Assembly: GCF_000014785.1 (NCBI RefSeq)
Contig: NC_008340.1
Location: 2,250,001 to 2,282,000 of the forward strand
DNA: 32,000 nt
Source: Alkalilimnicola ehrlichii MLHE-1
GTDB lineage: Bacteria; Pseudomonadota; Gammaproteobacteria; Nitrococcales; Halorhodospiraceae
Direction of reading: 5' to 3'
Shown here: piece after piece, positions 15,893-31,857 of the stretch
How positions within the stretch are numbered: position 1 is the first letter of the stretch
Layout: every line of letters begins with the position of its first letter
Notes under the pieces: model-generated
What the model was told of the DNA's origin: nothing
Databases searched by the model: none
Seen by the model: the letters and a program-made list of their open reading frames with translations, nothing else
Position numbers and translations under genes: made by a program

Positions 15893-16702
15893 TCACCCCC
15901 CGAACAGGCGTCCGAAGAAGCCTTTCTTTTCCACGGTGAGAAACCGGTGTGGGCGCTCTTCGCCCAGGAACCGGGCCACCGCGTCCTGGTAAGCCTGGCC
16001 GGCATCCGAGTCCCCGTCCAGGATCACCGGGATGCCGGCGTTGGAGGCATTGAGCACCGCCTGCGACTCCGGGATCACCCCCAGAAGCTCCACCGCCAGG
16101 ATCTCCCCCACATCGTCCACGGACAGCATATCGCCACGATCCACGCGCTCCGGCGAATACCGGGTCAGCAACAGCCGGCCGCTGATCGGTTCGCCGCCCT
16201 GCTCCGCACGCCGGGTCTTACTGGCCAGGATCCCCAGCACCCGGTCGGAGTCCCGCACGCTGGAGACCTCCGGGTTGGTCACCACAATCGCCTCATCGGC
16301 GAAGTAGGCCGCCATCAGTGCGCCCCGCTCGATCCCGGCCGGCGAATCACAGATGATGTAGTCGAACTGCTGGGACAGCTCATCCAGGACCCGCTCCACG
16401 CCGGCGTGGGTGAGCGCATCCTTGTCGCGGGTCTGCGAGGCGGGGAGGATGAACAGGTCCTTCACCCGCTTGTCCTTGATCAGCGCCTGATTCAGGTTAG
16501 CGTCACCGTTGATGACGTTGACGAAGTCGTACACCACACGGCGCTCGCAGCCCATGATCAGGTCCAGGTTGCGTAGCCCCACGTCGAAATCGATCACGGC
16601 GGTCCGGTGCCCGGCCTCGGCCAGGCCGGCCGCCATGGCGGCGCTGGTGGTGGTCTTGCCCACCCCGCCCTTACCGGAGGTCACTACGACGATCTTTGCC
16701 AC
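15893..16702 (-). CDS. minD: septum site-determining ATPase MinD
   Basis: 269 aa. It has the deviant Walker A motif [13 protein letters not shown] and a C-terminal amphipathic helix ([11 protein letters not shown]). The start is GTG, with GAGGAG 8 nt upstream. Confidence 0.97.
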
Positions 16703-16734
16703 GGGGTTATCTCCTCGATCCGTTGGGTCCGCCC

Positions 16735-17460
16735 TTACAGCGGGGCCACCTTCAGGCTGTCGCCCTCCAGGTAAATCTGTACGTTCCTGCCACGTTCGTC
16801 GTCGCCAATGTGCTCACTGACCCGGTACTGCCCGGCGATGGAGACCAGTTCCGGGTCCAGCCGGGCGCAGAAGATGCGCGCCTCGGTATCCCCCTGCACA
16901 CCGGCCATGGCGCGCCCCTTGAGCGCGCCATAGATGTGGATATGGCCGTCGGCCAGCACCTCGGCACCGGCGCTGACCATGGAGGTGACGATGAGATCCC
17001 CTCCCCGGGCATAGACCTGCTGGCCGGAACGCACCGGTTGGGTGATCAGCATCGAACGGGTCGGTTGCGGCGCCGGCGCGGGGGCCGGCGAAGGCTCCGG
17101 CTCCGGCCCGGCCTTAGGGGGCGCCGGCGCCCGGCCACTCGCCTCAATCAGCGGCAGGCCGGCGCCTGCCGCGAATGCCACGGCCTGGTCACCGGCCGGC
17201 CTGACCCCCAGGACCACCAGGCCGTGCGCCTGTAGCGCCTGGCGCAGCGCCTCGCCATCCAGATCGGCCACTGTCTCGCCCAGCGGCTCGGGGTCGAGCA
17301 ATACCGGGAGCCCGCGGAAAAACTCGGGGGCCTCCGCGATACGGGCAGCCAGGCTGTCCAGCAGATCCGTCTGCTGCGCGGTCAACAGACGCAGCACCGT
17401 GACGGTCATCATTCGCCCTTTAAACTCCAGGGCCCTCACACGCGTGGCCTCCACGCTCAT
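16735..17460 (-). CDS. minC: septum site-determining protein MinC
   Basis: 241 aa. It has an N-terminal FtsZ-interaction domain, a Pro/Ala-rich linker and a C-terminal beta-helix (VRSGQQVYARGGDLIVTSMVSAGAEVLADGHIHIYGALKGRAMAG). It heads the minCDE operon. Confidence 0.9.
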   Translation of the reverse strand: MSVEATRVRALEFKGRMMTVTVLRLLTAQQTDLLDSLAARIAEAPEFFRGLPVLLDPEPLGETVADLDGEALRQALQAHGLVVLGVRPAGDQAVAFAAGAGLPLIEASGRAPAPPKAGPEPEPSPAPAPAPQPTRSMLITQPVRSGQQVYARGGDLIVTSMVSAGAEVLADGHIHIYGALKGRAMAGVQGDTEARIFCARLDPELVSIAGQYRVSEHIGDDERGRNVQIYLEGDSLKVAPL

Positions 17461-17938: not shown

Positions 17939-18682
17939 TTAGATCCGCCGCGCCATCCAGACCACTCGCCCGACAATGTTCAGTTCAGCGGCATCCTCGG
18001 TGCTGATATGCTGATCGGCATACTGCGGGTTATCACTCCGGACCCACAGCCCACCCTTCCAGTCCACCTGCAGGCGCTTGGCCACCACGTGGTGTTCGAG
18101 CCGTAAGACATAAATGGCGTCTTCGGCAGGCTCCTGCTCTCGGGTGTCCACCAGGAGCAGATCCCCATCCGCCACCGTCGGCACCATGGAATCGCCGCCG
18201 GCGCCGACCAGCACCAGCCCGTCCGGGGCCAGCCCCTCCCCTAGCAGCCAGTCACGGCGGAAGGCCAGCCGCTCCAACATCCGCTGCTCAGCGGGCTGGT
18301 CGGCAGAGGGATGGGACTGGGCGTCGTACCAGGGAATCAATGCGAACTCACCCGCGTACCGCGTCTGCAGGCTGCTCGCAACTCGCAGCCCTGCGGTCTC
18401 ACCGCAATCGCGCACCGGTAACTCGCCGGTTGCCAGCCAACCGACCCGGATGTCCGCGGCGCGGGCGATCATAATCAACTTCTCGAGCCCGGGCATCGAG
18501 CCCTCGAGATACTTACGGATAAGGCTGTCGCTCATGCCACACTTCTGCGCAAAGCGAAACACTGGCTGATCACCGATCGCAAGACGCAGACGCCGGGAGA
18601 ACGCCGCACCTACGCTTTCCGCCTCACGCTCCCCCCCTGACATGACTTCCTTGAGCCGCTGCTGCTCTTGTGCTTTATGCAT
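17939..18682 (-). CDS. CI/LexA-like transcriptional repressor (HTH + S24 peptidase domain)
   Basis: 247 aa. The N-terminal XRE-type HTH is FAQKCGMSDSLIRKYLEGSMPGLEKLIMIARAADIRVGWLATG. The C-terminal S24 domain has the Ser nucleophile in GGDSMVPT (Ser165) and the Lys in VVAKRL (Lys202). Their 37-residue spacing matches LexA S119/K156. Confidence 0.85.
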   Translation of the reverse strand: MHKAQEQQRLKEVMSGGEREAESVGAAFSRRLRLAIGDQPVFRFAQKCGMSDSLIRKYLEGSMPGLEKLIMIARAADIRVGWLATGELPVRDCGETAGLRVASSLQTRYAGEFALIPWYDAQSHPSADQPAEQRMLERLAFRRDWLLGEGLAPDGLVLVGAGGDSMVPTVADGDLLLVDTREQEPAEDAIYVLRLEHHVVAKRLQVDWKGGLWVRSDNPQYADQHISTEDAAELNIVGRVVWMARRI

Positions 18683-19013
18683 AGTGACGCCTCACAGTCT
18701 GACGCAGGGCACTTGCCTCTTCCTGGCCGGGGCCGCTGACGCACTGATCACCACCGCCGCGGCCATCGACCGCGCCGGCTGCTTCTCCTCCTTTTCCCTA
18801 AGGATTACCATACCACCGATCGTTATTTTTTTCCGGCACGCCAGTCCGCGTCTGAAAAAACCTCGGACACAAAAAACGGGGGTGGTCCTAAGGCGACGGG
18901 TCGCTTATTATTCAAGGCAACCGGTAGCCCTACAGGCTCCGTTATATTCTAATTGTTTTGCCATTTTTTCCAACAATAACGTAAAAGACTCACACCCAGG
19001 AGCGAGTCGAGCC
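18683..19013. promoter_or_regulatory. divergent control region between the CI-like repressor gene and a small hydrophobic ORF
   Basis: The 331-bp gap becomes markedly AT-rich in its distal half (18790-19010), with runs such as TTATTTTTTTCC, TGAAAAAACC, ACAAAAAAC and CCATTTTTTCC. No promoter hexamers are confidently assigned. Confidence 0.4.
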
Positions 19014-19196
19014 ATGTGGATCTACGTCATCGTCACCGGCCTGATTGCGTGGCACGGTCTGACCTATCGCGACAAGAACGGTGAACACCCCCCTGTGCAC
19101 CTACTCTTCGGGTGCATCGCCCTGATGTTTTGCCTGCGCTTCCTGCTGGTGGACATCATGGAACTCCCCATCCCGGGCGTCCCCATCTCCAGCTGA
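19014..19196 (+). CDS. possible small 2-TM membrane protein (60 aa)
   Basis: This is the C-terminal part of track ORF 18642..19196, starting from the internal ATG at 19014: MWIYVIVTGLIAWHGLTYRDKNGEHPPVHLLFGCIALMFCLRFLLVDIMELPIPGVPISS. It has two hydrophobic stretches. AGGAG lies 11 nt upstream, which is rather far. No homologue recognised. Confidence 0.35.
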   Translation: MWIYVIVTGLIAWHGLTYRDKNGEHPPVHLLFGCIALMFCLRFLLVDIMELPIPGVPISS

Positions 19197-19236
19197 TAGG
19201 CGCCCCGGGACGCGCTACCAGCGGCTCGCCTCCAGG

Positions 19237-19818
19237 TCAGGGCCGCTGCCGATAGGTCCGCTGCGCCGCATCCTCTTCCGGCATGCTCAGCATGCGTTCC
19301 TCCTCGGGGAGTGCCAGCTGGGCCCGCAGGTAATCGGCGCGATCCGCCACCGTAGGTGGTGGCTCGTCCATGTGCAGCAGGCGGGTGATCCAGCCTGGCC
19401 CGTCCGCCACCCCGTCATCCAGGTACAGGGCGTATTCATAGTCCGCCAGCGCCTGTTCAAAGCGCCCCATGCGGTCGTAAGCAATCCCCCGGTTGGCATA
19501 GGTCCCGGGAAACCCGGGCACCCGTTCGATGGCCTGATCAAACCAGTGGACGGCCTCCTCATGGCGCCCCTTCTGCAGCAGGGTGCGGGCCTTGCCTCGA
19601 ATGGCATCGATACGCTCGGGGTCCGCCTGGAGGGCATCGCGGTAGTTGCGCAGGGCACGCTCATAGTGGCCGTCGGCAAAGGCGCGGTCCGCCGCCTTGT
19701 GGGCCACCTCGCCCGGCGCCGGGTCCGTGCGCAGGGCCTCGAAGATAATCCAGCCGGTGGACAGCACCATCACGGCCACAGCGAGTCGGGTTAGGATTCG
19801 ACGGCTGAGTTCATCCAT
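19237..19818 (-). CDS. membrane-anchored tetratricopeptide-repeat (TPR) protein
   Basis: 193 aa. It has one N-terminal TM helix (LTRLAVAVMVLSTGWIIFEAL) and then TPR-like units (ADGHYERALRNYRDALQADP, GRHEEAVHWFDQAIERVP, GRFEQALADYEYALYLD). The ATG at 19816-19818 overlaps the upstream ORF's stop in ATGGATGA. Confidence 0.75.
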   Translation of the reverse strand: MDELSRRILTRLAVAVMVLSTGWIIFEALRTDPAPGEVAHKAADRAFADGHYERALRNYRDALQADPERIDAIRGKARTLLQKGRHEEAVHWFDQAIERVPGFPGTYANRGIAYDRMGRFEQALADYEYALYLDDGVADGPGWITRLLHMDEPPPTVADRADYLRAQLALPEEERMLSMPEEDAAQRTYRQRP

Positions 19819-20050
19819 AGCTCGGCATACCCACGATATTGAGGCTGAAAATGAAGGAGAACGAGATACTGATGAAGGTGGCCAACACCCAGGCGCGCCT
19901 TTTTTGTCCGGCCAGTTCTTCCTCCGACAGCTCCCGCTGCACCCGAATCTGCAATCGGCGAACGCTGAAATTAAAAATCAAGTGTCGCACCGGAAACGAC
20001 AAAAGGATTGCAAAGGCAATGACGTACATTGCGAACGTGAATGGCGTCAT
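19811..20050 (-). CDS. small 2-TM membrane protein (79 aa), function unknown
   Basis: MTPFTFAMYVIAFAILLSFPVRHLIF...RAWVLATFISISFSFIFSLNIVGM. The ATG at 20048-20050 has AGGAGG 5 nt upstream; the track starts 2 codons earlier at a GTG. G+C is visibly lower than in its neighbours. It is coupled to the TPR gene by an 8-nt overlap. Confidence 0.5.
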   Translation of the reverse strand: MTPFTFAMYVIAFAILLSFPVRHLIFNFSVRRLQIRVQRELSEEELAGQKRRAWVLATFISISFSFIFSLNIVGMPSYG

Positions 20051-20060
20051 CGACACCTCC

Positions 20061-20098
20061 TAAAAGCAGAACGACGGGCCAGCCAGGGCCGACCCGTC
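20061..20098 (-). terminator. hairpin plus T-rich tract between the symporter gene and the 79-aa ORF (possible attenuating terminator)
   Basis: GACGGG (20073-20078) pairs with CCCGTC (20093-20098) around a 14-nt partly self-pairing loop. On the minus strand it is followed by GTTCTGCTTTTA and then immediately by the AGGAGG of the next ORF. Confidence 0.3.
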
Positions 20099-20112
20099 GC
20101 TTCCAACACCGC

Positions 20113-22287
20113 TCAGCTCTTGGCCGGCGCAGGCTCTGGTTGCCTCACATCCGGGCTGCTGACCGCATCCTCGTCGTAGAGGATCTCGATCTCCTTCTTC
20201 GGCACGGTGCTCATCTCCATCTTGTAGCAAAGGAACCACATCATGAACACGCCGAACAGCCAGCACAGGATCTGGTAGACGTAGATGGACGGGAAGCCGA
20301 ACACCCACCAGGTCGACGGATCACTCGGGTTACCGAACAGGTAGGTCCCGATGATGTTGCCCGGGCCGATGGCGAAGATGTAGTACACCGCAACGATGCC
20401 CCAGGCCACCGGGATGAGCCGGCGCTTATCCTGCGGCACCCCGGCGTGCTCCCGCAGCCACTTGTGGAACGTCTCCTTGTGTTCCATCTCGCGGGCATCC
20501 TGGGTGAACGCCGACACCGCAATGGCCACACCCATGTTCAGCACAATACCCCAACCACCGGAGTGGATGGTGAGCGGCCAACGGCCCCAGGGCAGATCCA
20601 GCCCCAGCGTGCTGGCCAGTGCCAGGCCCATGTTATCGGTGAACAGCACGGCCAGGATACCGACGATCAGGCCAGCCACCACGCCCTGCCGGGTCAGCCA
20701 CGACCAGTAGCAGACCGCGATCAGCGGCACCCACATCTGCAGGCCCAGTGCCACCGCGGTACCGCCCAGCAACACCAAGGCGTCCGTGGTGAAGGTCGCC
20801 ACCATCAACGCCGCAAACACCAGGATGACCACGACGATGCGACCCACTTGCTTCTGAACGTTGTGACTGACATTGGGGTTGATGAACCGCCGGAGCACAT
20901 CGCGGGTATAGATCCCGGATGTCGTGGACATGTAGGCCGCACCCGTGGACTGGAACGCACCCAGCGCACAAACCGCCAGCAGACCCACAAACCAGGGGGC
21001 CACCCCCTCCAACAGGCCCATCAGCTGCGGCACCAGGCCGGTGTCACCACCACCCTCGCGGCGCAGGTCCACCCAACCGGCCACTTCACGCGGGTCCTCC
21101 CCGGCACGCAGGGCCACCAGACCGTCATCGATCATCTGGTTGACCTCGCCGCGGCTCAACTCCGGGTTGAAGGTCGCGATCAGGCCACGCTGCAGCACCA
21201 CATCCTCCCGGCTGTCGTACAGATCCCGGTACTGCCCCAGGGTCTCCTCATAGGCCGGGTTGTGGACGTCGCGGGCCAGGTCCGTGTTGGCCCCCAGGCC
21301 GTGACCGGCCATGGCCTGCACCGCCAGCAGCACCACGATCACCGCACCGGAGATCAGGGCCGAGGCCCAGGTCTGCTGCGGGGCGAACGGCCGCGGGTCC
21401 TTGTTGGAGAAGGCCCACATGGTGAAGGAGGGCGAGGCCATGATGCCGGCCATGCTCATCATGTAGCTGAGCACCATCACCGAGGTCCAGGCACCACCGG
21501 TCGCATCCCCGACGTTGCTGACCCACTGGATCACCCCGGGTGTCGCCACGTAGCCGCTGTGCCCAGCCGGCGTAAGCCCCGGTCGACCAGCCTCCTGCCC
21601 ACCGGTGATCAGGTCCCACTGGCTCGCCGCGGCGATCGCCCGTGACAGCTCGCCGATGGAGCCCATGTAGTTGATGGCCACGAAGCTGATCGCGGTCATG
21701 CCGAACAGCAGCAGGACACACTGCATGGCGTCCACGTAGGCCACCGCCCGAAGACCGCCGGAGGCGACGTAGAACAACACGATGGCAGAGAGCGCCCACA
21801 TCCCCACGTTGGTGCCCAGGGCACCGTCAGTGAGGATGTTGAACAGGAACCCGGAGGCCCGCAGTTGGATACCCAGATAGGGAATCGCGAAGATGGTGGC
21901 GACGATGACCACCAGCCAAATGATGGCATTGCTGCGGAAGTAGGTCCCGTACATCTCTCCCGGCGTGACGAACCCCCAGCGGCGCCCGATCATCCACTGC
22001 CGCTTGAGGAACAACATACCGGAGATGGGGATGCCGATGGCGTACAGCCCAATGAAACCGTACTGCAGCCCGGTCATGTAAAGCAGGCCGGGGTGACCGA
22101 CAAAGGTCCACCCCGACCAGGATGTGGCGGTGGCTGCGAGTATGAACACCCACATGGGCACCGACCGCCCGGAAATGAAATAATCACTGGCGGTTTTCGT
22201 CGCCAGGGCACCCTTGATGCCCCAGAAGATACAGTACCCCCAATAGAGGCCGACGAAAACCAAAAGCCATATGGCCTTGGGTTCCAT
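20113..22287 (-). CDS. sodium:solute symporter family (SSF/SLC5) transporter, atypically long (724 aa)
   Basis: The SSF N-terminal signature is SDYFISGRSVPMWVFILAATATSWSGWTFVGHPGLLY. I count about 14-15 hydrophobic helices by eye. A roughly 90-residue hydrophilic insertion lies at about residues 333-425, and there is an acidic C-terminal tail. GGAGGGGAG lies before the ATG at 22287. Confidence 0.9.
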   Translation of the reverse strand: MEPKAIWLLVFVGLYWGYCIFWGIKGALATKTASDYFISGRSVPMWVFILAATATSWSGWTFVGHPGLLYMTGLQYGFIGLYAIGIPISGMLFLKRQWMIGRRWGFVTPGEMYGTYFRSNAIIWLVVIVATIFAIPYLGIQLRASGFLFNILTDGALGTNVGMWALSAIVLFYVASGGLRAVAYVDAMQCVLLLFGMTAISFVAINYMGSIGELSRAIAAASQWDLITGGQEAGRPGLTPAGHSGYVATPGVIQWVSNVGDATGGAWTSVMVLSYMMSMAGIMASPSFTMWAFSNKDPRPFAPQQTWASALISGAVIVVLLAVQAMAGHGLGANTDLARDVHNPAYEETLGQYRDLYDSREDVVLQRGLIATFNPELSRGEVNQMIDDGLVALRAGEDPREVAGWVDLRREGGGDTGLVPQLMGLLEGVAPWFVGLLAVCALGAFQSTGAAYMSTTSGIYTRDVLRRFINPNVSHNVQKQVGRIVVVILVFAALMVATFTTDALVLLGGTAVALGLQMWVPLIAVCYWSWLTRQGVVAGLIVGILAVLFTDNMGLALASTLGLDLPWGRWPLTIHSGGWGIVLNMGVAIAVSAFTQDAREMEHKETFHKWLREHAGVPQDKRRLIPVAWGIVAVYYIFAIGPGNIIGTYLFGNPSDPSTWWVFGFPSIYVYQILCWLFGVFMMWFLCYKMEMSTVPKKEIEILYDEDAVSSPDVRQPEPAPAKS

Positions 22288-22691
22288 TACTTCTCCCCTC
22301 CATCATATATTCAACTTATTTATACTGCAGAGCAGCACTGTCCCGAACTCGAAATGACGAGAAAACCGGTTCCAGCCCACTCTGCTCCGGATTCTAGTCT
22401 AGCGAATGGAGTTTTCCAACATCCTGTTTTTGCGTAGATTTTTTACTTTTTTGCGACTTCACTCCACTTTATTAGCACCACTCCAAAAAAACTTTAACGA
22501 TCCTCTAAACGAAGGGGAAAAATACCCGAGGACCCCTTATTTTTTGCCCACACAAAAAGAAAAAAAGGGGATTAAACACTTGGGCCACAGGCACTTTTTT
22601 GTCAGTCTACATTCATCGCGAAAGCGGCTATCTTTGACGGCACACCACGATGGATCCCGATCCTTAAGCAGATCCAGAGGACTGACATCAC
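22288..22691. promoter_or_regulatory. 404-bp AT-rich divergent control region (symporter operon <-> DUF294/exonuclease operon)
   Basis: By my count 22441-22500 has 20 G/C of 60 nt and 22501-22560 has 26 of 60, against roughly two-thirds G+C in flanking genes. There are many A/T tracts of 5 nt or more. CACTCCA occurs as a direct repeat at 22460-22466 and 22479-22485. An imperfect inverted repeat CCCCTTATTTTTT (22533-22545) / AAAAAAAGGGG (22560-22570) is also present. Confidence 0.6.
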
Positions 22692-24560
22692 ATGGAGATC
22701 GAACGCCTGGCCTCGGCAGAGGCCTTCGGTGCCGTGGACAACGAAGCCTTGGGCGCCCTGCTGGCTCACGGCACCGAACACCGCCTAGAGGATGACGAGG
22801 TCATCTTCCGCATCGGGGAGCCGGATAAGAATATCCTGTACATTGTCTACGACGGTCGCGTCACCCTGACCGGCACCGACGGGAGTAGCACCCTGTACGA
22901 GGCCGTGGCGCTGCTCGGTCTCTCCAGCTACTTCGACGACGAGCCCTACTCCCTGACCGCCCGGGCCGCGGGGCCCTGCCAGCTCATCGAGGTACCGTTC
23001 AGCGCTGTACGGTGCCTGGAGCGGGAGCACCCTGCCCTCGCCGACGCCTTGAGTCACATCATTGCCGACCGCATCCGCGCCGGGACCGCCCAGTGGCGCA
23101 CCGGGGCGGTGGGCGCCCTTTCACAGCCCGTCCGCTGGGCCATGACCGCGCCCCTGGTCTGCCTGCCAGGTGGCGCCAGCCTGACTGAGGCGTACCAGCT
23201 CATGGCCGCCCGCGGCATCGGCAGCCTGGGGGTGGTGGACGGGCAGGACCGGCTGATCGGGCTGGCCACCATCAAATCCCTCGCCCACCGGCTGCTCATC
23301 GAACGCCAGAGCCCGGATGCGCAGCTGTCCACCGCCGCCATGCCGGCCAGGCGCATTTCGCCGGATGCCGCCCTGTGGCAGGCGGAGGAGATCCAGGCAC
23401 GGGAGGCGCTGAAGTACCTGGTGGTGGCGGAAAACGACCGCCCCCTGGGCATGCTCTCGCAGAGCAACCTCATCGAGACCATCCGCGCCCACCAGACCCT
23501 GTTGCGTGACCGGGTGGAGCGTACGGGCACCCTGGCCGACCTGCAGGCCCTCGCCGCCGAGTTACCCAGCGTCGCCCGCCAGGCGCGTGAGGCCAACCGC
23601 GAGGCCAGCCGGGCGGTAACCCAGCTCAGTGAATTCCACCTGCAGCTCCAGCGACGCTGCGTCGAGATACTCCTCACGGAGTTGGCATCGGAAGGTCTCG
23701 GCCCCCCGCCCCGGCGCTATGCCCTGCTGGTCATGGGATCGCTGGCCCGGCGGGAGTCGCTGCTCAATCCGGATCAGGACAACGCCCTGATCATCGCCGA
23801 TAACCGGCCTGGCGAGACGGAGCCGAGCCCCCTCGACGACCGCGAGCGGCGTTGGTTCGACACCTTTGCTGATCGCCTGAATCACCGGCTGGACGCCCTG
23901 GGCTACGACTGGTGCCAGGGTCACATCATGGCCCGCACGCCGGTATGGCACCGTCAACTAGGTCAGTGGCGGCAATGGGTCATGACGGCGACACGACACC
24001 CGAACGGAGACCGGGCCCGCTGGGCCAATATCTTCCTGGACTTTGAACTGCTGCAGGGCGATGCCGGCCTGGTGGATGCGCTCTGGCGGGCGGTTCTGGA
24101 GGCCTTTGCGCAGCACCGAAAGCTGCTGCGGTTCATGGCCGCCGACGATGCCGAGGGCACACCGGCGCTCGGGCTGTTCAACCGGTTGGTCACCTCCGAG
24201 CGCGAAGAGGCCCGGGGTCGGGTCGATATCAAACGCAACGGCATGCGCATCCTGGCCAATGGCTGCCGCATTTACGCCCTTGGCCACCAGGTGCGGGCGA
24301 CCGGCACCCTGGCCCGCTTGCAGGCCCTGCGCCACCAAGGCGTGCTCACGCCGGACAAGGTGGATTCGTTGGTGGCCGCCCAGGAGGCCCTGCTGGGCCT
24401 GCTACTGGACCACCAGCTTCGGCAGTGGGGCGAGGGCCGGCGCCCGGACAAGTACATCGCCCCGGACGCGCTGGACGAGATGCAGCGCCAGGCGTTGGTC
24501 ACCAGCCTGCGCGCCATTCGCCGGTTCCAGGACCGGGTGCAAGGCGTCTTCGGCCTTTAG
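22692..24560 (+). CDS. cNMP-binding-like + tandem CBS + DUF294-type nucleotidyltransferase + DUF294 C-terminal domain protein (COG2905 architecture)
   Basis: 622 aa.
- Residues 1-125 form a cNMP-fold domain (EVIFRIGEPDKNILYIVYDGRVTL...LTARAAG).
- Residues ~145-265 form two CBS motifs.
- The pol-beta NTase signature LLVMGSLARRESLLNPDQDNALI has G349-S350 and D361-x-D363.
- Residues ~440-620 form a helical C-terminal domain. Confidence 0.85.
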   Translation: MEIERLASAEAFGAVDNEALGALLAHGTEHRLEDDEVIFRIGEPDKNILYIVYDGRVTLTGTDGSSTLYEAVALLGLSSYFDDEPYSLTARAAGPCQLIEVPFSAVRCLEREHPALADALSHIIADRIRAGTAQWRTGAVGALSQPVRWAMTAPLVCLPGGASLTEAYQLMAARGIGSLGVVDGQDRLIGLATIKSLAHRLLIERQSPDAQLSTAAMPARRISPDAALWQAEEIQAREALKYLVVAENDRPLGMLSQSNLIETIRAHQTLLRDRVERTGTLADLQALAAELPSVARQAREANREASRAVTQLSEFHLQLQRRCVEILLTELASEGLGPPPRRYALLVMGSLARRESLLNPDQDNALIIADNRPGETEPSPLDDRERRWFDTFADRLNHRLDALGYDWCQGHIMARTPVWHRQLGQWRQWVMTATRHPNGDRARWANIFLDFELLQGDAGLVDALWRAVLEAFAQHRKLLRFMAADDAEGTPALGLFNRLVTSEREEARGRVDIKRNGMRILANGCRIYALGHQVRATGTLARLQALRHQGVLTPDKVDSLVAAQEALLGLLLDHQLRQWGEGRRPDKYIAPDALDEMQRQALVTSLRAIRRFQDRVQGVFGL

Positions 24561-24574
24561 CGGGGTGCTGACTG

Positions 24575-25702
24575 ATGCCTGACGTGACCCAGTCGCCCCG
24601 GAACGGAGACCACCGGTGCGCCCCGGAGCCCGAGCGTCAGCTGATCGCGGTTCGGCTGGAGGCGGCCCGCCGGCCGCGGGGGGCGGGGGACCCAACGCAG
24701 ATCACCGCGGCACAGCAGCGGCTGGTGGCACAGCTCCGGGCCCGGGGCCTGCCCGCGGGTCGCATACAGCGCCGGCTTACCACCCTGAACAATACAGTCA
24801 TCCGCCGGCTCGCCCGACAGGCGGTGGCCGTGGCGCTCCGGCGTGGCGCCGGACCGCCGCCGGTGCGCTTCTGTCTGCTGGTGATGGGCTCAGGCGCCCG
24901 TGACGAGCACTTCCTGGGGCCGGACCAGGACCATGGCATGGTCCTGGCGGACTACCCCGACCGGGATCATGACGCGGTCGATGCCTGGTTCCGCTGCTAC
25001 AGCAGCCACCTGGTGGAGCGCCTGGAGGCCGCCGGCTTTCCCCGTGATACCGGCGACGTCATGTGCACCAACCCGCTCTGGCGCAAAACGCTGGGGCAGT
25101 GGACGCAGCAGATCACCACCTGGGCGCGGCGGGCCGATACCGTCAGCCTCTGCCTCGCCGACGTACTGCTGGACTGCCGCCCCCTGTTTGGGGCCCCGGC
25201 GCTGGCCCGCGCCCTGCGCACAGCGCTGACCCGGCAATTGGCCACAGCAGCGTTCCTGAAGGCCACGGTCATGGCCCATGGCGACCGCGGTGTCGGACTG
25301 GGGTGGTTCAACCGCTTTGTCACTATGGGCCGGTCCGATCCCCACCGGGGCTGCATCAACCTCAAGCACACGGCCCTGCTCCCCTTCATCACCGCCGCAC
25401 GGCAGTTGGCCCTTTACCACCGTGTCCCGGCGCTCAGCACCCGGGGGCGCTTACGGGGCCTCCACCGTCGGGGGGCGCTCACCGAGGCCGACCACCAAGC
25501 CCTGCAGACAGCCATGGACACCCTGGCGGACCAAGTCCTGCGCCACCAGCTCCGGCAACTGCACGAAGGGCAGACAGCGGACTATTTCCTCGACCCGACG
25601 GCCCTGCCGGCGGAGGAGCGGCAAGCCTTGAAAGAGGCCCTGAAGCGAATTCGCCGCTTGCGCGACCAGGCGCGCAATGACATCACCGGACAGATCTTCT
25701 GA
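24575..25702 (+). CDS. DUF294-type nucleotidyltransferase paralogue lacking the sensor domains
   Basis: 375 aa, starting 14 nt after the upstream stop. GAGPPPVRFCLLVMGSGARDEHFLGPDQDHGMVLAD aligns with GLGPPPRRYALLVMGSLARRESLLNPDQDNALIIAD of the upstream gene. The C-terminal halves are also alignable (LGWFNRFVT.../LGLFNRLVT...; ...HQLRQLHEG/...HQLRQWGEG). Confidence 0.8.
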   Translation: MPDVTQSPRNGDHRCAPEPERQLIAVRLEAARRPRGAGDPTQITAAQQRLVAQLRARGLPAGRIQRRLTTLNNTVIRRLARQAVAVALRRGAGPPPVRFCLLVMGSGARDEHFLGPDQDHGMVLADYPDRDHDAVDAWFRCYSSHLVERLEAAGFPRDTGDVMCTNPLWRKTLGQWTQQITTWARRADTVSLCLADVLLDCRPLFGAPALARALRTALTRQLATAAFLKATVMAHGDRGVGLGWFNRFVTMGRSDPHRGCINLKHTALLPFITAARQLALYHRVPALSTRGRLRGLHRRGALTEADHQALQTAMDTLADQVLRHQLRQLHEGQTADYFLDPTALPAEERQALKEALKRIRRLRDQARNDITGQIF

Positions 25703-25717
25703 GGAGGCACGAAGACC

Positions 25718-27907
25718 ATGTCTGTCTCTGATCATAGTGAACACTGGGTGGAGCGGATCAGCCGGGGTCTGCTCGGCCGGCACGCCACGCCTACCGGCCA
25801 CACCAGCCGCCGACTGCTGTTCTGGGCGCCGGCAATGGGGCTGGCTGTTCTGCTGACAGGGCTGTTGCTCGGCCTCGCCTATCTCTCCCTCTCCGCGCTG
25901 CCCGCCGGCGCCGACCCAACACCGCTGGTGGTCGCCTTCGGCGCTGCGGGGCTGCTCCTGCTGGCGGCGATCACGGCCATCTGGCTGTTGCTGGATGCCA
26001 CCGTGCTGCGCTCCCTGTCCGCGCTGGCCCGCGATGCGGCCATACTGGCCTACACCAACCCCGATCACCGGCTTCAGCTGCCGTCGGTGCACCTGCTCGG
26101 CGAGTTGCCCGGGACGCTGCGCAACCTCGCCCGCCAGTTGCAGGTCCGGCGCCGGGAGGTAGAGGCCGCCGCGGCCACGGCCGCCGAACAGGCCGAGGCG
26201 CAGAAGGCGCGGCTGGAGGTGGTGCTGCGCGCCATCCGGCAGGGGGTCGTGGTCTGTGATGCCGACGGACGGATCCTGCTCTACAACCCCGCCGCCGGTG
26301 AGCTGCTCCACAGCGACGCCCTGGGGCTTGGCCGCTCCATCCATGAACTGTTGAACCCAGCCGCCGTTGAGCACCCCCGACAACTGCTGCAACACCGACT
26401 GCGCCAGGATTCGGACGACCCGGTCATGGACGAGGGGGTGGAGTTCGTCTGTACCACGGTCGATGACGGCGCCCTGCTCCGCTGCCAGATGAGTCTGCTG
26501 CCGACCCACGGCCCGCTGCGCTCGGCCTTCGTCATCACCCTGGAGGACATCACCCGCCGGATCGAAGGCGTGGCCCGCCGTGACCAAGCCCTGCGCAGCG
26601 CCGTGGAGGCCCTGCGCTCGCCCCTGGCCGCGGTGTCGGTGGCGGCGGAGCTGCTCAACGAGTACCCGCAGATCGACGATGCCCGCCGACGCCGGTTCAT
26701 CGACATCCTGGCCAAAGAGAGCCACGTGCTGGTCCAGCGCTTCGAACAAATCGCGGAGGCCACTCAGGAGAACGTCTCCGCCCCCTGGACCATGGCCGAT
26801 ATCAGCAGCGACGATTTGGTGGACAGCGTGTTGCTGCGCCACCGCGACACCCTGCCCCGCGTGGCGCTGGCTGGCCTGCCCCTATGGCTCCATGCGGAGA
26901 GCCACGCCATCGGACTCGTGCTCACCCATCTGTTGCACCGTCTGGGACGGGACCACGGCGTCCTGGCCGTGCGCATCGAGGCGCTGATGGGCAACCGCCG
27001 GGTGTACCTGGACATCTCCTGGGCGGGCGAGCCGGTGCCGGGCCCCACCCTAGAGCAGTGGCTTGAGACCCCGTTGCCGGAGGCCATAGGGGAATTGAAC
27101 GCCCGCGCCGTGCTCGAGCGGCACAACAGCCTGGCCTGGAGTCAACGGGACCGGCGAACGCCGGGGTGGGCGTGCCTGCGCATCCCGTTGCCTGCCTCCA
27201 GCCGGCAATGGAACCCGCCCGGGGAGAGCCTCCCCCCGCGCCCGGAATTCTATGACTTCTCTCTCATCGACCAGGCCGCGGACCAGGGCGCTCTCCTCGA
27301 CCGGCCCCTGGACGCGTTGAACTACGTGGTGTTCGACACCGAGACCACCGGCCTGTCTCCAGCGGAGGGTGACGAGATCGTCTCCATCGCCGGGGTGCGA
27401 ATGGTCAATGGCCGCCTCCTGGACGGCGAGCGCTTCGAGCAACTGGTCAACCCCGGCCGGACCATCCCCCGCAGCTCGATCCTGTTCCACGGCATTCACG
27501 ATACGACGGTCGCGGATAAGCCCCGCATCGAAACGGTACTGCCGCGATTCCACACCTTCGTCGGCGACTCAGTGCTGGTCGCCCACAACGCCGCCTTCGA
27601 CATGAAGTTCATCCGACTGAAGGAGCGGCGCTGCGGCGTGCGCTTCGACAACCCGGTTCTGGACACGCTGCTGCTCTCGGTCTTTCTCCACGACCACACC
27701 GCGGACCACACCCTCGAGGCCATCGCCGCTCGGCTTGGGGTGGAGGTGACCGCGCAGCACACCGCCTGGGGCGATGCCCTGGTCACGGCACGGGTCTTCG
27801 CCTGCCTGTTACCGCTACTGCGCGAACGGGGGGTCCACACGCTAAGGGACGCGGTGGCGGCATCAGAGCGGATGGTGGAGGTACGCCGGCAACAGGCGCA
27901 GTTCTGA
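25718..27907 (+). CDS. membrane sensor (2 TM, HAMP-like, PAS, degenerate HisKA/HATPase) fused to a DEDDh 3'-5' exonuclease domain
   Basis: 729 aa, starting 15 nt after the upstream stop, with GAGGAGG 10 nt upstream.
- TM helices at about residues 34-58 and 68-92, then a coiled-coil.
- PAS domain ([30 protein letters not shown]).
- DHp-like helix [12 protein letters not shown], with Glu297 where the phospho-acceptor His would be.
- The N, G1 and G2 boxes are degenerate.
- Exonuclease motifs [22 protein letters not shown] and HTAWGD lie within residues ~534-705. Confidence 0.85.
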
Positions 27908-27927
27908 AAGGAGGCGGGGGGCAAGCC

Positions 27928-27956
27928 GGTGCGGGGCGACCCATGCGCCCCGCACC
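27928..27956. terminator. 11-bp GC-rich hairpin between the convergent exonuclease-fusion gene and htpG
   Basis: GGTGCGGGGCG (27928-27938) pairs perfectly with CGCCCCGCACC (27946-27956) around a 7-nt loop. No clear U-tract on either strand, so function as an intrinsic terminator is uncertain. Confidence 0.45.
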
Positions 27957-27973
27957 CCGGTGTTGCTGACGGA

Positions 27974-29932
27974 TCAGTCCCCGCGGGCGGCGTTGCTCTT
28001 TGCTTCGCCGGCCCGGGCCTGCTCGGTGAGCAGGGCGTTGACCCGCTTGACGAAGGCGGCCGGGTCCTCCAGCTGCCCGCCCTCGGTGAGCAGGGCCTGG
28101 TCGTAGAGCACCGCCGCCCAATCGCTGAAGCGGGCATCGTCCAGCCCCGTGTCCATGCGCTGAACGATGGGGTGGTCGATGTTGATCTCCAGCGCCGGCT
28201 TGCCCTGGGGCATAGCGTGGCCGGCGGCCTTGAGCAACCGCTGCATGCCCATGCCGAAGTCGTACTCGCCCACCACCAGGCAGGCCGGGGAGTCGGTCAG
28301 GCGGGTGGAGACCCGCACCTCGCTCACCTTGTCCTCCAGCGCGCCCTTGAGCTTCTCCAGCAGGTCCTTGTGGCTTTCGGTGGCCTCTTCCGCGGCCTTC
28401 TTCTCCGCCTGGTCCTCCAGCTCGCCCAGGTCCAGGCCGCCCTTGGCCACCGACTTCAGCGGCTTGCCGTCGTATTCATTCAGGTGGGTGATGACCCACT
28501 CGTCCACCGGGTCGGGCAGCAGCAGCACTTCGACCCCCTTCTTGCGGAACACCTCCAGGTGGGGACTGTTGCGGGCGGCGTTGAAGCTCTCGGCGGTGAC
28601 GTAGTAGATGGCCTCCTGGCCCTCTTTCATACGGGCGATGTAGTCGTCCAGGCTGACATCCGGCGTCTCATTCTCGTCTTGGGTGGTGGAGAAGCGCAGC
28701 AGCTTGGCGATGCGCTCGCGGTTGGCGAAGTCCTCGGCCACGCCCTCCTTCAGCACCTTGCCGAAGTTGCCGTAGAACTCGGCGTACTGCTCCGGCTCGT
28801 TCTTGGCCATCTTCTCCAGGCGGTCGAGAATGCGCTTGACCGAGGCGCTGCGGATCTTGTCCAGGAGCGGGTTGTGCTGGAGCAGCTCGCGGGAGACGTT
28901 GAGCGGCAGGTCGTCGGAGTCCACCAGGCCACGCACGAAGCGCAGGTAGCGCGGCATCAGCTTCTCGGTGTCCTCCATGATGAAGACCCGGCGCACGTAG
29001 AGCTTGATGCCGTGGGCCGGCTCCCGCTCGTAGAGGTCGAAGGGCGGGTTCTTCGGAATGTAGAGCAGCGAGGTGTAGGACTGGCGCCCCTCCACGTGGT
29101 TGTGCAGCCAGACCATGGGGTCGTCGAAGTCGTGGGCCACGTGCTTGTAGAAGGCCTTGTAGTCGTCGTCGCTGATCTCCGACTTGGGGCGCATCCACAG
29201 GGCGTTGGTGTTGTTCACCGTCTCCCAGGTCTCGGCGGCTTCCGCCTTTTCGGCCTCATCTTCCGGCTCGTCCTTGTCCTCGGCCTGGGCCGGCATCTGG
29301 ATGGGCACGTCGATGTGGTCAGAGTAGCGGCGGATGATGCCCTTCAGCCGCCAGTCGTCCAGGTATTCGCTCTGGGATTCGGGCAGGGTCAGCACCACCC
29401 GGGTGCCGCGCTCCGCCACTTCCTCGTTCTCCAGGGTGTAGGCGCCCTTGCCGTCGGAGGACCAGCGCACCCCGTGCTCGGCGCCCAGGCCGGCCTTGCG
29501 GGTATGCACGGTGACGTGCTCGGCCACCACGAAGGCCGAGTAGAAGCCCACGCCGAACTGGCCGATCAGCTTGGCGTCCTTTTGCTGGTCGCCGGTGAGC
29601 TGATCCAGGAAGGCCTTGGTGCCGGAGCGGGCAATGGTACCCAGGTTCTCCGCCACCTCGTCGCGGGTCATGCCGATGCCGTTGTCGGCCACGGTGATGG
29701 TGCGGGCGTCCTTGTCCACGGAGACGCGGATACGCAGGTCGCCCTCGCCCTCGAGCAGGGATTCATCCTGCAGGGACTGGAAGCGGAGCTTGTCGATGGC
29801 GTCCGAGGCGTTGGAGATCAGCTCGCGGAGGAAGATGTCCTTGTTGGAGTAGAGCGAGTGGATCATCAGGTGCAGGAGCTGCTGCACCTCGGCCTGGAAC
29901 TCCAGGGTTTCCTTGTGTGCGTCTGTCGCCAT
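27974..29932 (-). CDS. htpG: molecular chaperone HtpG (Hsp90)
   Basis: 652 aa. [71 protein letters not shown]. Confidence 0.97.
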
Positions 29933-30038: not shown

Positions 30039-30452
30039 CGTCTTGCGAGCGATCATCGGGATACGGTGCAAACGGCCATGCTGTATACCGGGCCTGGCCA
30101 TGACTGACTCGGCAAACCCTTCAATCTGAGCAGCCTCTCCCTTGAGCATGACCGCCTCCACACAGAGGTCGTGATCCACGTGCATATGCAACGTCGTCAC
30201 CGTCAGATCGAAATGTGCATGATGGGCCTCGGTTAACCGCTTGGCCAGTTCACGCTCTTTGTGGTCATAAAGATAGGTCAGCACCCCAACGCACGGCGTA
30301 TCCGGACGCTCATCGAGTGCCTCGGAGCCTAGCGCACCACGGATCAGGTCGCGAACAGCCTCGGACCGGTTGTTATACCCCCGCCTCTCCAGAAAGTTAT
30401 CGAACTCGGCCGCCAATCCGCTTTCCAATGAGACCGTCACCCGCTCACTCAT
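30033..30452 (-). CDS. nikR: nickel-responsive transcriptional regulator NikR
   Basis: 139 aa from the ATG at 30450-30452. It has the ribbon-helix-helix MSERVTVSLESGLAAEFDNFLERRGYNNRSEAVRDLIR. All four high-affinity Ni-site residues of E. coli NikR are conserved by eye-alignment: H76 in AHHAH, H87/H89 in LHMHV, and C95 in HDLC. The track ORF adds 24 codons that lie inside the kinase gene. Confidence 0.9.
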   Translation of the reverse strand: MSERVTVSLESGLAAEFDNFLERRGYNNRSEAVRDLIRGALGSEALDERPDTPCVGVLTYLYDHKERELAKRLTEAHHAHFDLTVTTLHMHVDHDLCVEAVMLKGEAAQIEGFAESVMARPGIQHGRLHRIPMIARKTP

Positions 30453-31857
30453 CCGGACACCCCACGCTGCTCTCATCTGTCTCCAACGGCAGCCGCAGGC
30501 GGAACAACGCCCCGCCTTGGACATGGTTGTCGCCGCTTAGCTGGCCCCCATGACGCTCCACTATCCCAAAGCTGACCGAGAGCCCCAGTCCGGTTCCCTT
30601 CCCCACGGGTTTGGTGGAAAAAAAGGGATCAAATATCCGCCCCAATGCCTCCTCATCAATCCCTGGCCCGTTATCGTGGAACCAGAGCTCTACCATTCCA
30701 TCCACCACATGACCGGAGATTCGCAACACTGGATCCGGGCACCCCTGCAAGGCATCAACCGCGTTGCTCACGAGGTTAACGACCACCTGCTGCATCTGCC
30801 CCTGTGAGCCACGGACCCAGTACGGCTGCTGCAAGGCATGGACAACGGAAACGGGGTGGGATACCGCCTTCTCCACCCAATGCACTGATCGCTCCACCAC
30901 CTCCCGCAGATCAAACACCTGATCCGCATCCCGGTCTACTGCTGCAAAACGTTTCAAGGCATCCACGATATCGTGCGTGCGCTCAGCCCCTTCGACTGTC
31001 CCCTCGAGTAGCGGCGCAATATCCTCCAGGACGTAGTCGATGCGGAGTTTACTCCTCAGGCGTTGCTGCTCTTCCGCGCTCACTCCCCGGTGGATGGCGC
31101 CCAGATACTCCTCAAGACGCCCGAGATAACGCTTCAGGGCGAAGGCATTACCCACGACAAAGCTAATGGGATTGTTCAGCTCATGGGCCACACCGGCAAC
31201 CAGCTGACCGATCGATGCCAGCTTTTCGCTTTGAATGAGTTGCTGTTGGGTCCGCTTCAAGCTCTCATGGGCCTCACTTAAGTCATGGTAAGCCTGTCGC
31301 AGTTCGCCGACCGGCCGCCCGATCAAAACCAATCCCTGAATCCGTCCGATCCGGTCACGCAGAGGCGCACAGTTCACCGCCACCGGGTTATGGCCGCCCC
31401 GGTGATCAACGAAGTTGACCTCGCAATCATTAACCGCCACAGCCTCGGCATGCTCAAAAACGCCCCTGGTCAACAGGCGATCACGGGATGCCTGATCGGC
31501 AAGGAGATCCCGCAGCGGCCGCCCCACCAGTACATCGCTACCCTCTCCTACCAGCTGTTCCATAGCCGGGTTCACCCGCTGGACCCGCCCCTGGTGATCG
31601 CACACCACCAGGACATCCGACATGGCGGAGAGCACACTAAAGAGAAACTGCTGGGAGCGCTCCAGTTCTGCATTCTTGCGCTCGAGCTCCGTCTCGTTCT
31701 CCAGCAGTTCGCTGTAGACCTCATCCATCCGATGGATGACTTCCAGCCAGGTTTGCTCGTCGAAGCTGCCCTCGGAATCGGTCTGCCCTGCCCCGGGCGA
31801 CATGGCCTGATTGAGCAGGGTCTCCGCCCCACGTCGATGTCTTGAACGTTCACCCAT
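30445..31857 (-). CDS. hupT: soluble PAS-domain sensor histidine kinase, HoxJ/HupT-like (H2-signalling kinase candidate)
   Basis: 470 aa with no TM segment. It has a coiled-coil plus PAS (FLFSVLSAMSDVLVVCDHQGRVQRVNPAMEQLVG). The kinase core is intact: H-box GVAHELNNPISF, N-box NLVSNAVDAL, G1 DNGPGI, F-box FDPFFSTK, G2 GTGLGLSVS. It starts 22 nt after the stop of a regulatory-hydrogenase-like large-subunit gene. The symbol is assigned from context only. Confidence 0.85.
   Translation of the reverse strand: MGERSRHRRGAETLLNQAMSPGAGQTDSEGSFDEQTWLEVIHRMDEVYSELLENETELERKNAELERSQQFLFSVLSAMSDVLVVCDHQGRVQRVNPAMEQLVGEGSDVLVGRPLRDLLADQASRDRLLTRGVFEHAEAVAVNDCEVNFVDHRGGHNPVAVNCAPLRDRIGRIQGLVLIGRPVGELRQAYHDLSEAHESLKRTQQQLIQSEKLASIGQLVAGVAHELNNPISFVVGNAFALKRYLGRLEEYLGAIHRGVSAEEQQRLRSKLRIDYVLEDIAPLLEGTVEGAERTHDIVDALKRFAAVDRDADQVFDLREVVERSVHWVEKAVSHPVSVVHALQQPYWVRGSQGQMQQVVVNLVSNAVDALQGCPDPVLRISGHVVDGMVELWFHDNGPGIDEEALGRIFDPFFSTKPVGKGTGLGLSVSFGIVERHGGQLSGDNHVQGGALFRLRLPLETDESSVGCPDE

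Follow-up and report, generated by a model that had tools for sequence, protein, structure and literature searches.

In two-component systems, the output is as a rule a property of the response regulator, and only a few pseudo-histidine kinases have been described, among them DivL of Caulobacter crescentus, a dead kinase that senses the phosphorylated regulator DivK~P (PMC4211667). In DivL, the acceptor position of the kinase core is occupied by Tyr, the signal passes on to the kinase CckA and there is no enzymatic output domain. Here, we describe a gene in which a core resembling that of DivL is joined in cis to a nuclease. The gene is present in a stretch of 32,000 nucleotides of the Alkalilimnicola ehrlichii MLHE-1 genome (contig NC_008340.1, positions 2,250,001 to 2,282,000, the whole of which is called the window hereafter), and its product of 729 residues, called the fusion protein hereafter, is composed of two transmembrane (TM) helices, a HAMP-like linker, a PAS domain, a DHp-CA module that is very probably that of a catalytically dead histidine kinase, and a DEDDh exonuclease domain that is predicted to be active. 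The likeness to DivL lies in the membrane-associated PAS-DHp-CA arrangement with a residue other than His at the acceptor position and with the fold kept, the DivL structure 4q20 being recovered in both the sequence and the structural comparisons described below. The difference is that the fusion protein has Glu or Asp in place of the His, has lost the N, G1 and G2 boxes and carries its nuclease in the same chain.

The other described system that has to be compared is the operon of Pseudomonas putida KT2440 comprising PP_0354, with a cNMP-binding domain, two CBS domains and a nucleotidyltransferase domain, and PP_0353, an RNase_T exonuclease. The operon is bound by ErdR, the two genes are the most strongly MxtR/ErdR-dependent ones, and growth of a PP_0353 deletion mutant is impaired on pyruvate, though not on acetate, with the molecular function stated as unknown (PMC9927547; bioRxiv 10.64898/2026.09.07.749794). 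In P. aeruginosa, PA3232-PA3235, which include actP, are co-induced on propionate (PMC9765439). As in P. putida, the RNase_T gene studied here lies beside a gene for a cNMP-CBS-nucleotidyltransferase, and in both cases there is a link to a sensor kinase of SLC5 type (the MxtR/ErdR regulon being the CrbS/CrbR regulon) and to genes of acetate and pyruvate assimilation. By contrast, PP_0353 is reported with the RNase_T domain only, with no sensor half and with its control being transcriptional via ErdR, whereas the fusion protein carries its own TM-HAMP-PAS-pseudokinase part, and a dedicated receiver and kinase adjoin it in most of the loci that we compared.

The open reading frame (ORF) of the fusion protein has a ribosome-binding site, GAGGAGG, ahead of its ATG, and its codon composition is gene-like, with a G+C content at third codon positions of 0.86 that is typical of the window genes. 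A database entry that is 100% identical to the product is named "exonuclease domain-containing protein" of Alkalilimnicola ehrlichii MLHE-1. In a preliminary description of this DNA, the N-terminal part had been read as TM-HAMP-PAS. The TM helices and the PAS domain are borne out by hydropathy, by the full-length AF2 model (mean pLDDT 78) and by Pfam, where the PAS matches span residues 165-283, while the HAMP part stands only partly: in the AF2 model the second TM helix runs on as a helix to residue 112, after which come a connector and another helix (130-154), and this pattern together with the alignment to the NblS model makes a HAMP identity of residues ~99-154 plausible, but no Pfam HAMP match was obtained in the 729 residues at E<=0.1. 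Neither the hydropathy scan nor the full-length model gives a periplasmic sensor domain.

We consider now the DHp-CA module. A profile of residues 285-525 was built from 17 family members and searched against all PDB sequences, and the matches were to histidine kinases, i.e., 9m08_C (E 2.6e-10), the VicK-like 4i5s with the match extending across DHp and CA, HK853, WalK and DivL. In the profile alignment, the phospho-acceptor His of SHELxTPL in 9m08, VicK and HK853 corresponds to E297, which lies in AVEALRSPL (residues 295-303). The two N-box Asn of the solved kinases correspond to H404 and R408 in LTHLLHRLG (402-410), the G1 motif DxGxG corresponds to W435-x-G437-x-P439 in LDISWAGEP (431-439), and of the G2 motif GxGLGL the last Gly alone is kept, as G458 of GELNARAV (458-465), with the segment from G1 to G2 being shorter by about 10 residues than in the solved kinases. 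The Pfam HisKA model matches residues 288-345 with 20.0 bits, under the gathering cut-off of 26.9, and Pfam HATPase_c gives no match in the fusion protein at E<=0.1. As to the fold, the AF2 model of residues 285-525 has a pLDDT of 84, and the 50 best listed PDB matches to it found with Foldseek are all DHp-CA structures of histidine-kinase type (E 7e-11 to 4e-08, alignments of 209-246 columns), including the pseudokinase DivL. Of what makes a functional HisKA kinase, the acceptor His, the N, G1 and G2 boxes and a sufficient Pfam score are thus lacking, and the hairpin of the DHp four-helix bundle and the alpha/beta fold of CA are present. Judged from these alignments and models, it is very probable that the module has the anatomy of a dead histidine kinase. 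The preliminary description had proposed exactly this, with Glu297 at the His position, the N-box Asn and the G1 and G2 boxes lost, and phosphotransfer and ATP binding apparently gone while the dimeric fold is probably kept; the motifs it quoted are all found where it placed them in the ORF, the structure-informed profile alignment that it had suggested agrees with its assignments, and the AF2 and Foldseek results agree on the fold. The reading holds for the family as well as for this protein.

The family is broad. Full-length homologues with 40-64% identity are present in Halorhodospira, Competibacteraceae and others, and the A. ehrlichii genome itself holds a second copy, a paralogue that is 54% identical to the fusion protein of the window. 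When one genome was scanned for each GTDB species, at least 475 of the first 600 pattern matches proved to be relatives, and the best 80 of the 475 are all near-full-length fusions. The survey for RNase_T domains C-terminal to PAS/HisKA-like modules, which had also been suggested, thus finds the fusion in at least six phyla, with members, as their records are labelled, in Gamma-, Beta- and Alphaproteobacteria, Nitrospirota, Acidobacteriota, Chloroflexi, Desulfobacterales/Desulfuromonadales and actinobacterial bins. When 1.84 billion cluster representatives were searched exhaustively with the profile, the pseudokinase module was obtained in 246 clusters (50% identity) at E<=1e-30, most of them of ~700 residues with the module at ~257-495. 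The earlier statement that the architecture matches no characterised protein holds in the sense that our literature search found no paper on a pseudokinase-exonuclease fusion, but the protein is not unique, being a member of a widespread family. The parts, namely the pseudo-histidine kinase, the DEDDh exonuclease, the SLC5-type sensor kinase and the single-domain receiver, are of known kinds, while the fusion and its gene cassette are uncharacterised and are annotated generically in databases.

In an alignment of 68 homologues, from which all the residue counts below are taken, the acceptor position is never His, the residues there being E (46), D (6), R (4), T (4), K (3) and Q (3). W435, at the position of the G1 Asp, is present in 67, G437 in 62 and R408 in 47, and D540, E542, D628, H681 and D686 of the exonuclease are each invariant. 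Within the DHp hairpin, conservation is highest in helix 1, with the consensus [AG]N[LI]RAA[AV]E. Because the acceptor is never His and because W435 and the DEDDh residues are conserved across phyla, the conclusion drawn from the alignment is that the kinase was inactivated at an early stage and that purifying selection has maintained it ever since, rather than that it decayed in one genome. It could be argued that the protein is nevertheless a working kinase or phosphotransfer protein with a non-canonical acceptor or non-canonical nucleotide binding, as the DHp-CA fold is retained under selection and an acidic residue is conserved at the acceptor position. This is barely credible, since a phosphoramidate cannot be formed on Glu or Asp, the family does not conserve the Thr/Asn found at H+4 in the phosphatase motif, and the Asn that binds Mg, the G1 Asp that binds adenine and the glycines of G2 are missing throughout the family; in addition, the lid is shortened, and HATPase_c is not matched at the threshold given above.

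The exonuclease module, by contrast with the kinase module, has all its catalytic motifs. Pfam RNase_T matches residues 537-694 over the full model (1-164) with 128.7 bits against a cut-off of 24 (E 4e-37), and the Exo I motif DxE is present in FDTETTG (539-545), the Exo II motif Nx2-3[FY]D in HNAAFD (623-628, with N624 and D628) and the Exo III motif Hx4D at H681 and D686. The five DEDDh residues, D540, E542, D628, H681 and D686, had been read as intact before, which their invariance in the homologues supports, except that the Exo II Asp had been given as D627, whereas residue 627 is Phe and the Asp is D628. On these motifs the exonuclease is predicted, with good confidence, to be active. Its nearest solved relatives are the exonuclease domains of PolC and Pol III epsilon (PDB 2p1j, E 5e-28; 1j53), with which it shares the RNase_T fold and the three Exo motifs. 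The fusion protein differs from these in that it is not part of a polymerase, is tethered to the membrane, has a leader motif ahead of the exonuclease and occurs in a non-replicative context.

The leader motif, which we call the PEFYDF leader, lies in the linker of ~30 residues between CA and the exonuclease, which is disordered in the AF2 model (pLDDT <50 at residues 500-514). Its residues E510, D513 and F514 are present in 61, 67 and 67 of the 68 homologues, respectively, and short-form exonucleases also have the motif, at their N-terminus or close to it. It has the appearance of a short linear docking motif, for which the neighbouring DUF294 protein is a possible partner. The short forms were seen with residues 505-729 as the query, which gave 4367 matches at E<=1e-10, including fragments of the fusion. 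The minimal stand-alone exonuclease, P0223, has 226 residues and starts at the motif, RLEFYDF; a form of ~294 residues in Rhodospirillaceae (P0186 and its relatives) has only two TM helices, the leader motif and the exonuclease; and P0171 has PAS and the exonuclease with no DHp. In the sole short-form locus examined, L005, the exonuclease with two TM helices lies beside a CBS-DUF294 gene and a trio of SSF, small ORF and TPR genes. A metagenomic cluster representative of 1154 residues, P0286, reads PAS / pseudokinase / RNase_T / CBS / DUF294 / DUF294_C; it is either a natural fusion of exonuclease and nucleotidyltransferase or a merged gene call, with the RNase_T match covering only 1-107 of 164, and it is taken as a hint only. 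The long ORFs of the homologous loci L039 and L073 have no extra Pfam domain upstream and are probably over-extended start calls, not receiver fusions.

The gene neighbourhoods were compared in 68 loci for the receiver and the SLC5-like kinase and in 71 loci for DUF294 and acs, with the kinase and DUF294 counted within 7 kb. In 55 of the 68 loci, the gene just upstream on the same strand encodes a single-domain response regulator, four of the exceptions being cut by contig ends, and in the Halorhodospira locus (L004) the receiver gene and the fusion gene share one base, the last of the former and the first of the latter. The SLC5-like histidine kinase is present in 49 of 68 loci, with a full-length identity of 50-59% in most of them, one or more DUF294 nucleotidyltransferase genes in 53 of 71, and acs in 22 of 71. 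The fusion gene is associated in a cassette with the receiver, the kinase and DUF294, and often with acs. In three fuller loci, that of the A. ehrlichii paralogue, that of Halorhodospira and that of Competibacter, the composite order is acs, TPR and SSF (divergent), cNMP-CBS-DUF294, receiver, fusion, small hydrophobic protein and kinase, the Competibacter locus having the receiver-to-kinase part only; the receiver has ~124 residues, the hydrophobic protein 65-102 and the kinase 907-935. Betaproteobacterial loci mostly have the kinase first, followed by the receiver, the fusion and DUF294. The stand-alone receiver keeps DD, D53, T83 and K105 and has no output domain. The neighbouring kinase of ~917 residues has ~12 TM helices and matches SSF weakly, and its HisKA and HATPase_c domains are intact, with the motifs SHELRTPL, NLLSNAAKF, DNGPGI and GSGLGL. 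It resembles the SLC5 kinases of CbrA/CrbS/MxtR type, and the DHp-CA module of the fusion protein aligns to its core, the pseudokinase profile matching the DHp-CA of this kinase with 93.7% probability. The fusion protein differs from kinases of this type in having two TM helices and no transporter domain and in being unable to phosphorylate, and the locus of the window has no such kinase.

The small hydrophobic protein of 65-102 residues, which has no Pfam match, lies just before the SLC5-like kinase gene or overlaps it (L003, 10108-13081; L004, 10126-13127; L001, 10187-13220) and was detected by tblastn in 32 of 71 loci. It may be a subunit of the SLC5-like sensor kinase.

With these neighbourhoods in hand, we can consider whether the protein is a proofreading or repair exonuclease of DnaQ type, or an effector nuclease of anti-phage defence, to which the kinase-like part is incidental. 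The relation to PolC and Pol III epsilon, the name "DNA polymerase III subunit epsilon" that some sources give to homologues, and the match of the PADLOC models DEDDh and PDC-S48 to the exonuclease domain would be in line with it. However, the fusion protein stays far below the equivalog cut-offs for DnaQ (TIGR01406, dnaQ_proteo, 103.9 against 222.7; PRK05711, 98.4 against 196) and reaches no dnaQ or PolC equivalog cut-off. Moreover, it is anchored in the membrane, its neighbourhood is one of metabolism and signalling (acs, SSF, DUF294, two-component genes) rather than of replication or defence, both DUF294 proteins of the window are without a PADLOC match, and the family keeps a stable cassette across its phyla. 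We regard a role of this kind as highly improbable, and an anti-phage defence system was dropped as a candidate, the PADLOC matches being only generic ones on the exonuclease domain.

In the window, the fusion gene is the last of a same-strand run of three, following the gene for a DUF294 protein with cNMP-binding and CBS domains and that for a second DUF294 protein, of 375 residues, which fills the slot that the response-regulator gene holds in most homologous loci. A search of the PDB with this 375-residue protein gave no match. Because the second DUF294 gene is in the receiver slot, no kinase is present and a fuller paralogous locus exists in the same genome, the window copy is a satellite paralogue of the fuller system elsewhere in A. 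ehrlichii, of which it retains the core of DUF294, exonuclease and SSF genes. The replacement of the receiver gene by a second DUF294 gene, and the lack of a kinase, are seen again in L014, L058, L085 and L086, the last with a CBS-DUF294 of 498 residues.

Based on these data, we propose a model in which the fusion protein would be a membrane-anchored, signal-gated exonuclease, with the pseudokinase being both a dimeric scaffold and a dock for the receiver in the manner of DivL, and with the exonuclease acting jointly with DUF294 in the control of carboxylate assimilation. In the model, the sensor half would derive from a HisKA-type kinase that has permanently lost autophosphorylation and would now serve as a dimeric transmission scaffold. 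In the canonical loci, the SLC5-like histidine kinase, with the small membrane subunit, would phosphorylate the stand-alone receiver, and the phosphorylated receiver would bind the DHp of the pseudokinase, as DivK~P does with DivL. The resulting conformational change, together with any input from PAS, would then switch the C-terminal exonuclease, and metabolites may provide a further input through PAS and the remodelled CA pocket. The exonuclease and the cNMP/CBS-regulated DUF294 protein would form an add/remove pair on the 3'-nucleotidyl end of an RNA or oligonucleotide, and the pair would tune the uptake or assimilation of short-chain carboxylates through acs and the SSF transporter. For the model as a whole we hold a slight preference. 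That the kinase-like module drives or controls the exonuclease, as the preliminary description put it, is itself an inference.

The steps of the model differ in strength. Docking of the phosphorylated receiver on DHp is the simplest reading of the data because the receiver lacks an output and its gene abuts the fusion gene in L004, and here the analogy is with DivL, whose kinase core is repurposed to read a single-domain regulator; we put it forward tentatively, as a possibility short of an even chance. The add/remove pairing of exonuclease and DUF294 is somewhat more doubtful. In the literature, our search on DUF294 together with an exonuclease found nothing, and the DUF294 matches that were examined concerned DUF2946 or lacked DUF294 as a whole word. 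Still more speculative is the widest form of the model, namely a hitherto undescribed two-component pathway whose output is a post-transcriptional one on nucleic acids at the membrane instead of transcription, where the signal would pass from the kinase to the receiver and then to the dead kinase/exonuclease as its sole target, with DUF294 and the nuclease writing and erasing a nucleotide tail or an oligonucleotide signal that sets the uptake and assimilation of acetate and pyruvate; we consider this form unlikely as it stands.

Several observations weigh against the proposed model. Neither a receiver nor an SLC5-like kinase is present near the fusion gene in the window, so that the docking step could apply to the window copy only if there is cross-talk with the paralogous locus; control of this copy might instead come from PAS or from DUF294 directly. 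The DHp features that the fusion shares with the SLC5-like kinase are generic to HisKA kinases and are no proof of a common partner. The likeness to PP_0353/PP_0354 is a match by domain content and context only. The former ATP pocket has conserved residues of its own (several Trp, R408 and H469), and these could serve a new ligand rather than a mere scaffold. Also, we looked at whether divergence of helix 1 tracks loss of the receiver, with which the window copy (AAVSVAAE against the consensus ANLRAAAE) fits and L058, P0011 and P0013 fit partly, but this link was dropped as L014 and L085 have no adjacent receiver and yet keep the consensus.

It is noted that part of these observations can also be explained by supposing that the sensor half is a ligand-sensing dimerisation scaffold only, where a metabolite bound by PAS, and perhaps by the remodelled CA pocket, switches the exonuclease directly, while the receiver and the kinase act elsewhere, e.g., on transcription or on DUF294. 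This would be consistent with the window copy, L014, L058, L085 and L086, which have the whole sensor half with no adjacent receiver, with the forms of the exonuclease that have PAS only or two TM helices only and no DHp, and with the conserved W390, W435, W448, H469 and W474 of the CA-like domain. If this were the case, however, the receiver directly upstream in 55 of 68 loci and the abutting genes in L004 would have to be explained otherwise, a single-domain receiver without an output would still need a protein target, and DHp helix 1 would not be expected to be the best conserved part of the hairpin. We consider such a scaffold without docking less likely than our model, though a real possibility.

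In this family, a kinase core that lost catalysis long ago is conserved and joined directly to a nuclease, in most loci beside a dedicated receiver and a genuine kinase, and the family would offer a compact system for studying how dead kinases read phosphorylated regulators; the window copy is not among the loci with a receiver upstream. In addition, the exonuclease/DUF294 pair is the most strongly regulated target of the Pseudomonas CrbS/MxtR carboxylate regulon, and the family offers a route into the role of the pair. The family is also common in carbon-storing bacteria of wastewater (Competibacter, Accumulibacter, Dechloromonas, Zoogloea), where the control of acetate uptake is of practical interest; the cultured carriers among those seen are isolates such as Xanthobacter sp. 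and Ramlibacter aurantiacus.

The features of the window locus are listed in Table 1.

Table 1. Domains of the fusion protein and neighbouring genes, in window coordinates
Feature	Coordinates	Strand	Evidence
Whole gene: TM / HAMP-like / PAS / pseudo-histidine-kinase / DEDDh exonuclease, 729 aa	25718..27907	+	ORF, Pfam, AF2
Two TM helices (residues ~33-59, ~68-98), loop of ~8 residues between	25814..26011	+	Hydropathy scan; AF2 helices 26-59, 68-112
HAMP-like helix-connector-helix linker (residues ~99-154), HAMP identity plausible	26012..26179	+	AF2 secondary structure; NblS model aligned over 64-373
PAS domain (residues ~158-283)	26189..26566	+	Pfam PAS_4, PAS_8, PAS above cut-offs; AF2 PAS-like strand/helix pattern
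DHp-like two-helix hairpin (residues 285-351), Glu297 (codon GAG, 26606-26608) at the phospho-His position	26570..26770	+	Sub-threshold HisKA; profile alignment to 9m08, VicK, HK853
Degenerate CA (HATPase_c-like) domain (residues ~358-495), R408, W435, no G2 box, shortened lid	26789..27202	+	Profile, AF2, Foldseek
Conserved linker motif, 11 residues (506-516), predicted disordered in monomer	27233..27265	+	Alignment; AF2 pLDDT
DEDDh (DnaQ-like) 3'-5' exonuclease domain (residues 535-729), predicted active	27320..27907	+	Pfam RNase_T; PDB 2p1j match
cNMP-binding / CBS / DUF294 / DUF294_C putative nucleotidyltransferase, 622 aa, first of same-strand run	22692..24560	+	Pfam
DUF294 + DUF294_C putative nucleotidyltransferase, 375 aa, no cNMP/CBS sensor domains	24575..25702	+	Pfam; context comparison
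Sodium:solute symporter-family (SSF) transporter, 724 aa, divergent	20113..22287	-	Pfam SSF; same neighbour in L003, L004, L005
Small hydrophobic ORF, 81 aa, between SSF and TPR genes	19811..20056	-	tblastn match in L004; 78-aa genes in same slot in L004, L005
TPR protein, 193 aa, third of SSF / small / TPR trio	19237..19818	-	Pfam TPR; conserved in L003, L004, L005

The SSF transporter matches the MctP and VC_2705 families far under their cut-offs and has ~190 extra residues in its middle compared with typical members. The trio of SSF, small and TPR genes is also found beside the exonuclease/DUF294 genes in Halorhodospira (L004) and in L005, a metagenomic locus whose exonuclease is labelled Rhodospirillaceae by NCBI. 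Between the divergent SSF and DUF294 genes there is an intergenic region of ~400 bp (22288-22691) that is AT-rich, with long A/T tracts, the window being otherwise of 60-70% G+C; neither a sigma-54 pattern search nor a scan of 19000-28200 for sigma-70 promoters and terminators yielded more in this region than is expected by chance.

Finally, we note a few genes farther out. The fusion gene is followed by a convergent gene for HtpG, and beyond it a genuine PAS / HisKA / HATPase_c histidine kinase of 470 residues with intact domains is encoded (30445-31857, minus strand), whose comparison with the pseudokinase profile by hhalign gave only a match of 30 residues with a probability of 17.7%. On the other side, past the TPR gene, a protein of 247 residues with HTH_3 and Peptidase_S24 domains, of the LexA or phage-repressor type, is encoded in a stretch of lower G+C (17939-18682, minus strand; G+C 0.62), and 15893-17460 (minus strand) holds a minD-like gene (AAA_31/CbiA/ParA) and minC, which are ordinary cell-division genes unrelated to the fusion.

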